This document shows, one piece after another, positions 13,518-18,225 of a stretch of DNA of 64,000 bases. Below the pieces are notes generated by a model, which was given only the letters and a program-made list of their open reading frames with translations, made no database searches and was not told where the DNA came from. This DNA is from Leptothrix sp. (in: b-proteobacteria) (GTDB lineage Bacteria > Pseudomonadota > Gammaproteobacteria > Burkholderiales > Burkholderiaceae_C). Positions within the stretch are counted from its first letter, which is position 1, and every line of letters starts with the position of its first letter. The stretch is from contig PNKD01000004.1 of the NCBI GenBank assembly GCA_013822265.1, positions 9,183 to 73,182 of the forward strand. Reading direction: 5' to 3'. Both the position numbers and the translations under genes were made by a program.

Positions 13518-13533
13518 CTGTATAAACATACAG
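13518..13533. promoter_or_regulatory. LexA (SOS) box in the intI promoter
   Basis: CTGT-ATAAACAT-ACAG, exact CTGT-N8-ACAG, 22 bp before the intI ATG. Confidence 0.92.
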
Positions 13534-13555
13534 TTTTCCGTGTCCAGGGGGTTCC

Positions 13556-14800
13556 ATGCACCATGCAGCCGAAGCGCCACCGTCGTCCTTGGCCGCGCCT
13601 GCCGCCAGCCCCCGCCTGCTCGATGCCCTGCGCCAGCAGATCCGCTACCTGCACTACAGCCTGCGTACCGAAGACGCCTACGTGCACTGGGTGCGTGCCT
13701 TCGTGCGCTTTCATCGCCTGCGTCATCCTGCCGATCTCGGGCATGCCGAGGTCGAGGCCTTTCTCTCCTGGCTGGCCGAAGACCGCCAAGTCGCCCCGGC
13801 CACGCACCAGCAGGCGCTGTCGGCGCTGCTCTTTCTCTACCAGAAGGTGCTGCGGCAGGACCTGCCGTGGATGGGCGAGATCGGCCGCCCGAAGGGCGAG
13901 AGGCGCCTGCCCGTGGTGCTGTCGGTGGCCGAGGTGACTGCCGTGCTGGCCCATCTCGATGCGCACGCGCTGCATTCGGGCATGCCGCATGGTGTCGTCG
14001 GGCGGCTGCTCTACGGCACCGGCATGCGCCTGCTCGAAGGTCTGCGGCTGCGTGTGAAGGACATCGACTTCGATCGCCGCGCCATCGTCGTGCGCGAAGG
14101 CAAGGGCACCAAAGACCGCGTCGTGATGCTGCCGGCCGCGCTCGAGGCGCCCTTGCGCGCCCAACTGGCGCAGGCGCACGAGGTCTGGGCGGCCGACCGC
14201 GCTGCGGATGTGCAGGGCGTGCACGTGCCGCACGCGCTGGCGCGCAAGTACCCGCGGGCGGCCTTGTCCTGGGCCTGGCACTGGGTCTTCCCGCAGGGCA
14301 AGTTGTCGATGGACCCGCGTGGCCCCGGCGAGCGCCGCCACCACTTCCTGGAAGGCAACTTCCAGCGTGCCTTCAAGCGCTCGCTCGACGCGGCGCACAT
14401 CCACAAGCCGGCGTCGCCGCACACCTTGCGCCATTCCTTCGCCACCCACCTGCTGCAGGCCGGCTACGACATCCGCACCGTGCAGGAACTGCTGGGCCAC
14501 GCCGACGTCAGCACGACCATGATCTACACGCACGTGCTGCGGCTGGGCGGCGGGGCCGTGCGCAGCCCGCTCGACAGCATGACGCCCGGCGCCGGCCCGG
14601 CCCCCGGTGCCTTCGCCGGGCCCCACGGCGCGGCTGCTGCGGCGGCCGACGCTGCCCCCATCGCCCCGCGGCGTTTCGACCTGCCCGACATGCCGGCCAG
14701 CCGCCCGCCGCGCGCGCGTGAACCCGAACCCTGCTACGCCCTGCCGTGTCTCGCCCCGATGGCCCAGCCGGCCACAGCCTTCCGGCCTACGCCGAACTGA
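13556..14800 (+). CDS. intI: Integron integrase (tyrosine recombinase)
   Basis: [13 protein letters not shown]-terminus; catalytic R (GMR), K (GKGTKDR), HTLRH, LGH, TMIYTH; integron-specific insert [21 protein letters not shown]. Confidence 0.96.
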
Positions 14801-17800
14801 TCTGCCGCAGCAACTTCAGCTTCCTCGACGGTGCCTCGCACCCCGAGGAACTGATCGCCCGCGCGCAGGCGCTGCGTTATGCCGCGCTGGCCATCACCGA
14901 CGAGTGCTCGCTGGCCGGTGTCGTGCGCGCCCACCTGGAGGCCACGCGGCTGGGCCTGCCGCTGCTGGTCGGCAGCGATTTCCTGCTGCAACGTGATGCC
15001 GCGCCGCCGCCTGTTGGCCCGCCCGGGCCGGCCACCGTGCCGTGGCCGGCGCCGTCGCCGCCCGCGTCGCCCGGGACGGCGGCCGTGGGCGCGGGCGCAG
15101 GCGAAGACCAGGGCGATGAAGACGACAGCGACGCCCACCCCGAAGATGCCGCGCCGCCGCCTCGCATCGCCACCGGCCCTCGCCTGGTGATGCTGGCCAT
15201 GTCGCGCCGGGGCTACGGCAACCTGGTGCAGTGGATCAGCGTCTGCCGGCGCCGTGCCCCCAAGGGCCAGTACCGCGCCGAGATGGCCGACCTGGAAGGC
15301 CGCGTGCCGGCGGCGCCCATGCTCGCCGGCCTGCCGGGCTGCCTGGCGCTGCTGGTGGCCTCGGCGGTGTTGCCGTCGCCGACGGCGTCCTCGGCGGCGC
15401 AACCGGGCGCCGCCGCAGCGCCGCCGGCCGACCCCTTCGAGGCGCTTTTCGCCCAGGCGCTGTGGCTCAAGACCTGGTTCGGCGACCGCGCCGCGCTGGC
15501 GCTGCCGCTGCTGATGCACCCGCACGACGCGCTGCTGGCCCACATCACGCAGCGCGTGGCCGCGCTCACCGGCCTGCCCATCGTCGCGGCCGGCGACGTG
15601 CGCCTGCACGCCCGCTCGCGCAAGCCGCTGCACGATGCGCTGACGGCCACGCGGCTGCGCACCACCGTGGCCGCCTGCGGCCACGCGCTGCACCCCAACG
15701 CCGAGGCCCACCTGCGCCCGCGCACGCGGCTGGCGCGCCTGTACCGCCGCGAGTGGCTGGACAACACGCTGGTGCTGGCCGGCCGCTGCACCTTCAGCCT
15801 CGCCGAGCTGAAGTACGAGTACCCGCGCGAGATCGTGCCCGACGGCCACACCCCCGCCAGCTGGCTGCGCGTGCTGACCGAAGAAGGCGCGGCGCGGCGC
15901 TATCCCGGCGGCGTGCCGGCGGCCGTGCGCGCGATGCTCGGGCACGAACTCGCGCTCATCGCCCAGCTGCAGTACGAGGCCTACTTCCTTACCGTGGCCG
16001 ACATCGTGCAATGGGCGCGCGGCCAGGGCATCCTGTGCCAGGGCCGCGGCAGCGCCGCCAACTCGGCCGTCTGCTACTGCCTGGAGGTGACGGCGGTCGA
16101 CCCCGAGGTGCACACCATGCTGCTGTTCGAGCGTTTCATCAGCGCCGAACGCAACGAGCCGCCCGACATCGACATCGACTTCGAGCACCAGCGCCGCGAA
16201 GAGGTCATCCAGTACATCTACCGCAAGTACGGCCGCCACCGCGCCGCGCTCACCGGCGTGGTCATCAGCTACCGGCCACGCAGCGCGCTGCGCGACGTCG
16301 GCCGCGCGCTCGGGCTCGACCTCGACCGCATCGAGGCCGTGTCGAAATCGCAGCACTGGTGGGATTCCGGCCCCGAGACGCCTGCGGCGTCGCCCCCCGA
16401 GGGGGACGCGGCCGCCTTGGGGCGGCCCGGCGGCGGCCACGGCCGCAGGATAGCCCCCGAACGCCTGCGCGAAAACGGCTTCGACCCCGAAGCCCATATC
16501 ACGCGGCTGTGGTTGGAGCTGACGCAACAGCTGATCGGATTCCCGCGCCACCTCTCGCAGCACCCGGGCGGCTTTGTCATCGCGCGCGACACGCTGGCCG
16601 AACTGGTGCCGGTGGAAAACGCCAGCATGCCCGGGCGCAGCGTCATCCAGTGGGACAAGGACGACCTCGACGCGCTGCGCCTGATCAAGGTCGACATCCT
16701 GGCCCTGGGCATGCTCAGCGCGATCCGACGCGCGCTCGACTTTGTCGGCGAGAAGCGCGGCGTGCCCATGGCCCTGCACCAGATCCCGAAGGAAGACGCC
16801 GCCAGCTACGCCATGCTGTGCCGCGGCGACAGCGTGGGCACCTTCCAGGTCGAGAGCCGGGCCCAGATGGCGATGCTGCCGCGGCTGCGCCCCAAGACCT
16901 TCTACGACCTCGTGATCGAGGTCGCCATCGTGCGCCCCGGGCCCATCCAGGGCGGCATGGTCCACCCCTACCTGCGCCGGCGCAACGGCGAAGAGCCGGT
17001 CGATTACCCCAGCGCCGAGGTCGACAAGGCGCTCAGCCGCACGCTGGGCGTGCCCATCTTCCAGGAGCAGGTGATGCAGCTGGCGATCCTGGCCGCCGAC
17101 TTCACGCCCGGCGAAGCCGACCAGCTGCGCCGCGCCATGGCGGCCTGGAAGCGCAAGGGCGGCCTCGGGCCCTTCCACGCGCGGCTGGTGGGGCGCATGG
17201 TCGAGAAGGGCTACGAACCCGAGTACGCCGAGCGCATCTTCAAGCAGATCGAGGGTTTCGGCGAATACGGCTTCCCCGAGAGCCACGCCGCGAGTTTTGC
17301 GCTGCTGGTCTACGCCAGCGCCTGGCTCAAGTGCCACCACCCCGACGCCTTCCTGGCCGCGCTGCTGAACAGCCAGCCGATGGGCTTCTATGCGCCGGCG
17401 CAACTGGTGCGCGACGCGAAGGAGCACGGCGTGCAGGTGCTGCCGGCGGACGTGCTGCGCAGCCAGTGGCACAGCGTGCTGGAAGGCCAGGGCGATGCCG
17501 CGCTGTGGCCCGTGCGCCTGGGTTTCAGCCGCATCAGCGGCTTCGAGCAGGACGCCGCCGAGCGCCTGGTGGCCGCGCGCGCCGAAGCGCCCTTCACGAG
17601 CGCCGAAGACCTGGCACGCCGCGCCGCGCTCGACGCGCACGAACTCGGCCTGCTGGCCCAAGCCGATGCCTTGCAGCACCTGGCCGGCCACCGCCACCAG
17701 GCCGCGTGGGCCGTGGCCGGCGTCGACACGCGGGCCACCGCGCTGCTGCGCGGTACGCGCACGCACGAGGCTGCGGCGGCCCTGGCCGCGCCCGACGCCG

Positions 17801-18225
17801 CCGCCACCGTGCTGGCCGACTACCGCCGCCTGGGCCTCAGCCTCACCCAGCACCCGGTGGCGCTGCTGCGCAGGCAGCTGGCGGCCTTCAAGGTGCTGCC
17901 GGCGGCCGTGCTGCAGCACTTCCCGCACGGCCGGCTGGCACGTGCCAGCGGCATCGTCACCCACCGCCAGCGGCCCGAGACGGCCAAGGGCGTGGTCTTC
18001 GTGACGCTGGAAGACGAGAGCGGTGCCGTCAACGTCATCGTCTGGCCGCAGGTGGCCGAGCAGTTCCGCCGCGCCTTGCTGGGCAGTTCGCTGCTCACCG
18101 TCTACGGCATCTGGCAGAGCCAGGGCGAGCCGGGCCACGAGGTGCACCACCTGGTGGCGCGCACGCTGGTCGACCACACCGTGCTGCTGCAGGGGCTGGC
18201 ACCGGCCAGCCGCAACTTCCGCTGA
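14746..18225 (+). CDS. dnaE2: Error-prone DNA polymerase DnaE2 (ImuC)
   Basis: [61 protein letters not shown]; GTG start uncertain but the conserved YAEL motif lies inside the intI 3' end. Confidence 0.93.

Follow-up and report, generated by a model that had tools for sequence, protein, structure and literature searches.

In a 64,000-nucleotide (nt) stretch of a Leptothrix sp. draft genome (contig PNKD01000004.1; the whole stretch is called the window here, and positions are counted from its first letter), the integron integrase gene intI is overlapped at its 3'-end by dnaE2 (imuC), which encodes an error-prone DNA polymerase, and the two genes lie on the + strand behind a single LexA (SOS) box. 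Our analysis suggests that intI and dnaE2 probably constitute one LexA-repressed operon of two genes, expressed from one mRNA and with coupled translation. This reading appears well supported by comparative anatomy, because a co-transcribed and translationally coupled pair predicts an arrangement conserved across genera and an intI frame that stays open into dnaE2, and both were found in the related genomes.

The intI gene (13556-14800, + strand) encodes a protein of 414 amino acids that matched two IntI-specific models covering the extra segment peculiar to IntI, each in a single stretch: NF011946 with 457.6 bits (cut-off 435; residues 14-344 on positions 9-332 of the 337 of the profile) and TIGR02249 with 441.6 bits (cut-off 265). 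Inspection showed that the catalytic residues of tyrosine recombinases (R, K, HxxR, H and Y) were all present, including the MIYTHV motif, that the frame had no stops and that the integrase core extends to about position 14590. The start codon is an ATG at 13556, and an AGGGGG ribosome-binding site was found at 13545-13550, between the LexA box and the ATG. Pairwise ratios of nonsynonymous to synonymous substitution rates (dN/dS) against relatives, which are averaged over long branches, were similar for intI (0.21-0.45) and dnaE2 (0.23-0.47), indicating that intI is under purifying selection. The dnaE2 gene (14746-18225, + strand, 1159 amino acids) starts with a GTG at 14746, and its product scored 1438.6 bits against the DnaE2 model NF004225 (cut-off 939) and 573 bits against the DnaE model NF004226 (cut-off 1002). 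A search of the whole genome returned this DnaE2 and the replicative DnaE, with no further copy. The gene of the latter lies in the window at 46746-49979, separate from dnaE2, as the sequence-only reading that preceded this work had stated.

The core of the LexA box, CTGTATAAACATACAG (CTGT-N8-ACAG), was localised at 13518-13533, 22 nt upstream of the intI start, and the sequence at 13516-13535 is TACTGTATAAACATACAGTT. The perfect box that had been claimed before intI was thus found by the consensus scan of the window, and no second box for the gene pair was found. It was the sole site in the 64 kb with at most 3 mismatches from the LexA 20-mer consensus TACTGTATATATATACAGTA, where the number expected was 0 (none in 100 shuffles), and it was one of 14 perfect CTGT-N8-ACAG sites counted in the whole assembly of 4.38 Mb. 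Because the same motif also precedes imuA (perfect), lexA (one mismatch, about 50 nt before the gene) and recA (one mismatch, about 90 nt before the gene), the intI box would be of the type used as SOS box by this organism. The palindrome in the promoter region, by which members of the SOS regulon are recognised, is therefore present at intI.

Nucleotide sequence analysis upstream of intI, together with the likeness to relatives, offered a putative promoter at 13493-13519 on the + strand, composed of a -35 hexamer TTGCTC (13493-13498), a 15-nt spacer and a -10 hexamer GATACT (13514-13519) whose last two bases are also those with which the LexA box begins. A similar layout, with CTTGC(A/C) followed after about 15-19 nt by GATACT, TAGACT or GAGACT abutting the box, was seen upstream of intI in Rubrivivax sp. 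RP6-9 and in seven sampled genomes (G336, G396, G218, G087, G013, G209 and G080). Hexamers similar to those of the class 1 PintI promoter (TTGCTG and TAGACT) recur at the loci studied here. The assignment of the TTGCTC and GATACT hexamers to an intI promoter is a lead only. A promoter-like site was also found on the minus strand across the LexA box (13517-13546; TGGACA, 18 nt, TACAGT), and it was the sole consensus one in 5.3 kb; since it is directed to the side where cassettes would be expected, it could be the remnant of a cassette promoter overlapped by LexA.

The two genes overlap by 55 nt (14746-14800, + strand), with dnaE2 in frame +2 relative to intI. According to the sequence-only reading, the conserved N-terminal motif of DnaE2 (YAEL..SNFSF) was encoded within the end of intI; this was correct for YAEL, because the intI stop codon (14798-14800) falls inside the YAEL codons (14788-14799), and incorrect for SNFSF, whose codons (14809-14823) lie past that stop. 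When the sequence before the GTG at 14746 was read, no purine-rich ribosome-binding site was seen. Comparison with relatives delimited an Ala/Pro-rich C-terminal tail of IntI of about 70 amino acids (14591-14800, + strand), which runs into dnaE2. The tail that follows MIYTHV measured 32-124 amino acids in the IntIs linked to dnaE2, as opposed to 15-25 in most of the unlinked ones. Alignment across the Rubrivivax and Aquabacterium loci revealed a conserved tail motif, R-A-R-E-P-x-P-C-Y (14711-14737, + strand), and the nucleotide differences compared between this genome (G000) and the locus L072 were on third codon positions of the intI frame, indicating that the tail is translated. A short motif, (R/K)EPxxxY, was also present at or near the C-terminus of some IntIs unlinked to dnaE2 (Caenimonas and Ramlibacter; L137, L140, L097, L101 and L102), and it may be a general feature of this group of betaproteobacterial IntIs.

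In the 43 linked loci compared, between 152 and 369 nt separated the end of the integrase core from the YAEL codon, and dnaE2 was in frame +2 to intI in 35 of them, across at least 28 spacer lengths, showing that insertions and deletions in the spacer had been multiples of three right up to dnaE2. In 25 of those loci intI shared one TGA end, 40 nt past the start of the YAEL codon, and the intI stop preceded the YAEL codon in 15 of the 43. An intI frame that remains open, joined to a dnaE2 start lacking a ribosome-binding site, suggests that the ribosomes translating intI are meant to reach the start of dnaE2, which presupposes a shared mRNA.

In order to establish the distribution of the arrangement, 401 genomes sampled from the same GTDB family were surveyed with a threshold for IntI homologues of E at most 1e-40, and a homologue was found in 203 of them. 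The dnaE2 gene was located directly behind intI and on the same strand in 17-18 of the 29 best non-self loci, and in 54 of the 109 IntI loci that could be classified, mostly in genomes labelled Rubrivivax or Aquabacterium (Sphaerotilaceae). Among the named loci whose IntI was at least 68% identical, 33 of 36 were linked to dnaE2, and the 44 unlinked loci at about 59-70% identity fell almost entirely in the 59-65% band, which comprised Polaromonas, Rhodoferax, Hylemonella, Ramlibacter, Acidovorax, Roseateles/Pelomonas and Undibacterium. The linked genes overlapped or were at most 130 nt apart in nearly all cases, with gaps of 86-310 nt or about 1.3 kb in a few (G361 and G087), and an intervening perfect LexA box was found in none. 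The organism itself is Rubrivivax-like (NCBI family Sphaerotilaceae), and the IntI nearest to its own, with 83% identity in the best segment of the tblastn match, is encoded by the closed chromosome of Rubrivivax sp. RP6-9. When the linked or unlinked label was mapped on a tree of 113 IntI rows, it required 6 changes, compared with 36.7 when the labels were shuffled. The pairing is therefore a lineage trait of about a dozen genera, and not the peculiarity of one strain that the sequence-only reading had named, together with a dnaE2 not induced by SOS, as grounds for its own refutation. The same junction was met in more than 50 genomes, closed chromosomes among them, which rules out an artefact of assembly.

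Two loci departed from this pattern. L044 (genome G138, of the same genus as the window) has an IntI core of the Comamonadaceae type that grouped with the unlinked IntIs, together with a tail, frame and stop of the linked type; recombination seems to have swapped the intI core there and to have left the junction in place. In L048 (G221), intI is linked to a dnaE2 that grouped with the canonical imuB-linked polymerases and whose product begins with LQVLSNFSF instead of YAEL; its IntI belongs to an unlinked lineage, and this locus may represent an independent origin of the pairing.

The claim that imuA and imuB are missing from the 64 kb stood up, both genes being located on another contig, C22 (imuA at C22:86-937, NF033429, 193 bits, cut-off 150; imuB at C22:980-2572, IMS domain). 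They are preceded by their own LexA box at C22:63 and followed by unrelated genes among which there is no polymerase gene; the contig starts 62 nt upstream of the box. The proposal that intI had replaced imuA-imuB in their slot was consequently abandoned, given that imuA-imuB are intact elsewhere with a LexA box of their own. Their presence under such a box implies that DnaE2 has not been orphaned and that the mutasome would be split into two LexA-boxed units.

As background for the family, one genome per genus was considered, giving 94 with an N-terminally complete dnaE2. The imuB gene was directly upstream of dnaE2 in 68 of these (median gap 56 nt), 1-4 kb upstream in 2, and not found within 4 kb in the remaining 24. 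The genomes without an adjacent imuB largely matched those with an ImuB 51-65% identical to that of this genome, the identity of the canonical ones being 34-47%. In a tree built from DnaE2 sequences obtained by motif-anchored extraction, all the detached dnaE2 genes except that of G221 formed one clade (support of 100 in the Shimodaira-Hasegawa-like approximate likelihood ratio test, stem 0.48). Upstream of dnaE2, some members of the clade have an intact intI; G013 has a LexA box followed by an intI remnant without the catalytic half, and in G116 intI is split by an insertion of 3.4 kb. A further form within the clade is that of G080, where a piece of intI remains 2 kb from dnaE2 and another LexA box adjoins dnaE2. 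No intI was present in G028, G008, G071, G090 and G042, where the LexA box was located 4-10 nt from the dnaE2 start in most and about 30 nt from it in G090. The rows without intI were scattered over the clade as sisters of intI-linked rows, and this nesting suggests that the intI-dnaE2 arrangement was ancestral to the clade and that intI was lost several times with the LexA box being retained before dnaE2, an argument of parsimony made on the gene tree and not on a species tree.

With respect to the place where the integron originally settled, one member of the split clade, G112, has a locus (L058, G112:C5:320300-324000) in which imuA-imuB are followed by a hipB-like helix-turn-helix gene and a hipA toxin gene, and then by dnaE2. 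The hipBA genes may be a leftover of an integron once located between imuB and dnaE2. G112 thus hints at an original position between these two genes, in contrast to the closed genomes, in which imuA lies 159-625 kb from intI-dnaE2.

The immediate neighbourhood of the pair was also analysed. The region upstream of intI carries on the opposite strand a cation-diffusion-facilitator (CDF) pseudogene, hemP, tonB, exbB, exbD and a gene for a TonB-dependent receptor. The CDF pseudogene (12942-13440, - strand) is truncated at its 5'-end, matching positions 144-194 of 198 of the Cation_efflux profile as well as ZT_dimer; there are stop codons upstream in frame and about the first four transmembrane segments are gone. 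Its truncation point, about 80 nt from the LexA box, is the breakpoint of a rearrangement at the place expected for attI. Downstream, a convergent gene for a sensor and diguanylate cyclase (18277-21798, - strand; Pfam Reg_prop, Y_Y_Y and GGDEF) separates dnaE2 from the esterase and yaaA genes. G289 has this gene as well; in G398, G209 and G336 it is absent and the esterase and yaaA genes come directly after dnaE2. The divergent pseudogene upstream and the convergent gene downstream make intI-dnaE2 an isolated unit of two genes. Scans with consensus sequences, which are weak in DNA so rich in G+C, detected neither a promoter-like sequence within intI on the + strand nor a terminator-like one at the junction, and an Rfam search of the window gave no match. 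The features by which operons are recognised, that is, a single strand, no intervening terminator or regulator site, and a gene order kept across genera, were all observed.

From the observed anatomy, conservation, frame constraint and distribution of the pair, we infer LexA binding, co-transcription, translational coupling and an order of evolutionary events as follows. In undamaged cells, LexA would occupy the box that overlaps the intI promoter. Upon DNA damage the promoter would fire, giving a single mRNA with both genes, and the ribosomes translating intI would continue along the long tail of the integrase until they entered the beginning of the dnaE2 coding sequence. Their passage would open the G+C-rich region around the dnaE2 start, where a separate ribosome-binding site is lacking, and might in addition keep the mRNA from being terminated too early. 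It is speculation whether the gain would lie in translational coupling or in a shield against Rho-dependent polarity within the C-rich spacer. The separate LexA-boxed operon that encodes ImuA and ImuB, the partners of DnaE2, would be induced at the same time. As to its origin, a chromosomal integron probably came to lie before dnaE2, the SOS promoter of the integrase taking over the control of the polymerase gene, and the layout would be ancestral to the Sphaerotilaceae clade formed by Rubrivivax, Aquabacterium and their kin. In this genome, the certain output of such an operon is SOS control of dnaE2.

The cassette side of the integron was examined with an nhmmer profile of the attC sites of Rubrivivax RP6-9 and with blastn using the attC sites of relatives. 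Two attC-like sites were found in the window, one at 7397-7528 (R' GTTGGGC with a degenerate R''; nhmmer E 8e-7) and another at 6866-6986 (R' GTTAGGC with a decayed left arm; nhmmer E 7e-5). Both had been missed by a regular-expression scan for paired arms (YTAAC ... GTTAR), the R'' being degenerate. The site at 7397-7528 folds into a single long imperfect hairpin with its two ends pairing, and the two sites share a direct repeat of 66 nt (77% identity, 542 nt apart). Between them lies a gene for a DUF2784 membrane protein (6978-7394, - strand; PF10861, 105.8 bits), directed away from intI as in cassettes. They are separated from intI by 6 kb, in which the TonB-dependent receptor gene, exbD, exbB, tonB, hemP and the truncated CDF gene are located. 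No further attC-like sequence was found in the assembly, a draft of 251 contigs; when 13440-13517 was inspected by eye no GTTRRRY core was seen, attI sites being too poorly conserved for a firm negative, and the region upstream of intI had no match among 80 related loci. An integron finder limited by distance would probably report the remnant at 6866-7528 as an In0 plus a stray pair of attC sites.

The situation was different in some relatives. In G134, G317 and G209, the 12-13 kb that adjoin intI upstream, opposite to the dnaE2 side, contained 15-22 repeat copies of the attC type (GCCTAAC ... GTTAGGC, about 550 nt apart); arrays were also present in Rubrivivax RP6-9 and several metagenome-assembled genomes, and the other linked loci had no attC sites within 5 kb. 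The array of attC cassettes adjoining intI that marks a complete integron was thus found in G134, G317, G209 and RP6-9 and was lacking in this genome, whose integron is, judging from these remains, largely decayed. The sequence-only reading had proposed that cassette shuffling is here coupled to mutagenesis; with two attC-like sites 6 kb off and no attI recognised, such a coupling is doubtful for this genome, and it would hold for the relatives with full arrays.

Several observations weigh against a single operon. The spacing between the -35 and -10 hexamers is short in this genome (15 nt) and the consensus promoter scan missed the putative promoter; the frame counts are non-independent, since the genomes are related; the tail has no clear codon-position signal in its G+C content (0.86/0.75/0.84); and the 55 nt by which the dnaE2 start precedes the intI stop are a long distance for classical coupling by termination and reinitiation. 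Moreover, promoters in such G+C-rich DNA rarely fit the consensus and an unrecognised one inside intI is possible, so that the earlier statement that the overlap leaves no room for a separate promoter was not sustained. The two genes could then be separate units, with dnaE2 transcribed from a promoter in the 3'-terminal portion of intI and the adjacency reflecting the chance settlement of an integron. The unreliability of promoter prediction at about 70-80% G+C, where the scan calls almost nothing anywhere, would favour this explanation, as would G080, in which dnaE2 is adjoined by a second LexA box and the fragment of intI lies 2 kb upstream, and the gaps of 86-310 nt or about 1.3 kb, which could hold a promoter. 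However, no second LexA-like site was found in the window or between the genes of the linked loci, and an independent dnaE2 would therefore lose the SOS control that was kept in the relatives examined; besides, under independent expression there would be no reason for an intI frame kept open into dnaE2 over many spacer lengths. We consider the separation of the two genes unlikely. Far more improbable still is an IntI-DnaE2 fusion made by programmed -1 ribosomal frameshifting in the overlap. Although the -1 (+2) frame of dnaE2 in 35 of the 43 loci and the openness of both frames across the overlap would permit it, no slippery heptamer of the X XXY YYZ type was seen in the intI frame at 14722-14797, every locus has an in-frame dnaE2 start codon just upstream of the conserved N-terminus, and in 15 of the 43 loci intI stops before the YAEL codon.

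A different question is what IntI itself contributes to the operon. It is quite possible, if somewhat doubtful, that the integrase has no integron work left in this strain and that intI serves mainly as a translated leader bringing the SOS promoter and the ribosomes to dnaE2, in which case cassette shuffling and mutagenesis would not really be coupled here. The presence of just two attC-like sites in the whole assembly, one of them degenerate and both 6 kb away behind iron-uptake genes, the lack of a match for the region upstream of intI, and the later decay in relatives, where intI was truncated (G013), disrupted (G116) or lost, are all consistent with a leader. Against this, the gene is intact, its product exceeds the equivalog cut-off and retains all the catalytic motifs, its dN/dS, although an average across long branches, indicates a maintained protein, attC sites at a distance can be served by an integrase in trans, and in an assembly of 251 contigs an array could be unassembled. 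At the other extreme, we think it very unlikely that the linkage is kept because IntI and DnaE2 work together beyond sharing a switch; for example, synthesis by the mutasome (DnaE2 with ImuA and ImuB) might resolve the single-stranded attC intermediate or fill gaps after insertion, and the RAREPxPCY tail might be a docking peptide for a component of the replication machinery or the mutasome. A position kept despite the replacement of the intI core by that of another lineage (G138 and G221) would fit such cooperation.

It is established that integron integrases are controlled by LexA (survey by Cambray et al. 2011, PMC3108266), with LexA-repressed promoters described for the class 1 IntI1 and for the IntIA of Vibrio cholerae (Guerin et al. 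2009, cited in PMC3323433). LexA control is likewise established for imuA-imuB-dnaE2 (Erill et al. 2006 and Galhardo et al. 2005, reviewed in PMC9578287). The literature found, from which papers available by subscription only were outside the search, describes no integrase set against dnaE2, and the word "polymerase" is absent from the survey of intI promoters (PMC3108266). SOS control of integrases and of the DnaE2 mutasome are thus both textbook matters that have been treated as separate stress outputs, and here the two are joined in a single overlapping gene pair inherited across at least a dozen genera. The pair offers a natural system in which to ask if gene shuffling and point mutagenesis are co-selected, its integrase tail would allow translational coupling or anti-polarity to be tested by simple genetics, and the pair would show how the SOS promoter of a mobile platform takes over the control of a host repair gene. 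For annotation, it would mean that the control region of dnaE2 is 1.2 kb upstream in these genomes and that In0 integrases may persist for reasons besides cassette recombination.

When compared with the LexA-repressed intI promoters already described, the locus has in common an SOS box that overlaps the promoter directly upstream of an intact integrase. The regulated unit has been described there as intI alone, whereas here dnaE2 overlaps the 3'-end of intI and has no box of its own. The imuABC cassette resembles the present system in that dnaE2 is LexA-controlled and imuA-imuB are LexA-boxed, and most genera of the family keep the canonical operon; in contrast, dnaE2 is here detached from imuA-imuB and its upstream partner is an integrase instead of imuB. 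Arrangements in which imuA'-imuB and dnaE2 are split and under separate SOS control occur, for example, in Mycobacterium tuberculosis, with the box and promoter of dnaE2 directly upstream of the gene. As here, two separately LexA-controlled units compose the mutasome; however, the M. tuberculosis-type dnaE2 has its own box, and the box in the window is 1.2 kb away, before intI. The integron of Xanthomonas sits next to ilvD. Sedentary chromosomal integrons fixed at one chromosomal site have been reported, as in Xanthomonas (bioRxiv 10.1101/2025.06.18.660453), and variability in the arrangement of imuA-imuB and dnaE2 is noted in PMC9578287. Integrons of the Xanthomonas type and those of the clade studied here both occupy a fixed locus, at which some members have large arrays and others a decayed integron or none; they differ in that the anchoring gene is here dnaE2, co-oriented downstream of intI and overlapping it, implying that the expression of the two genes may be shared.

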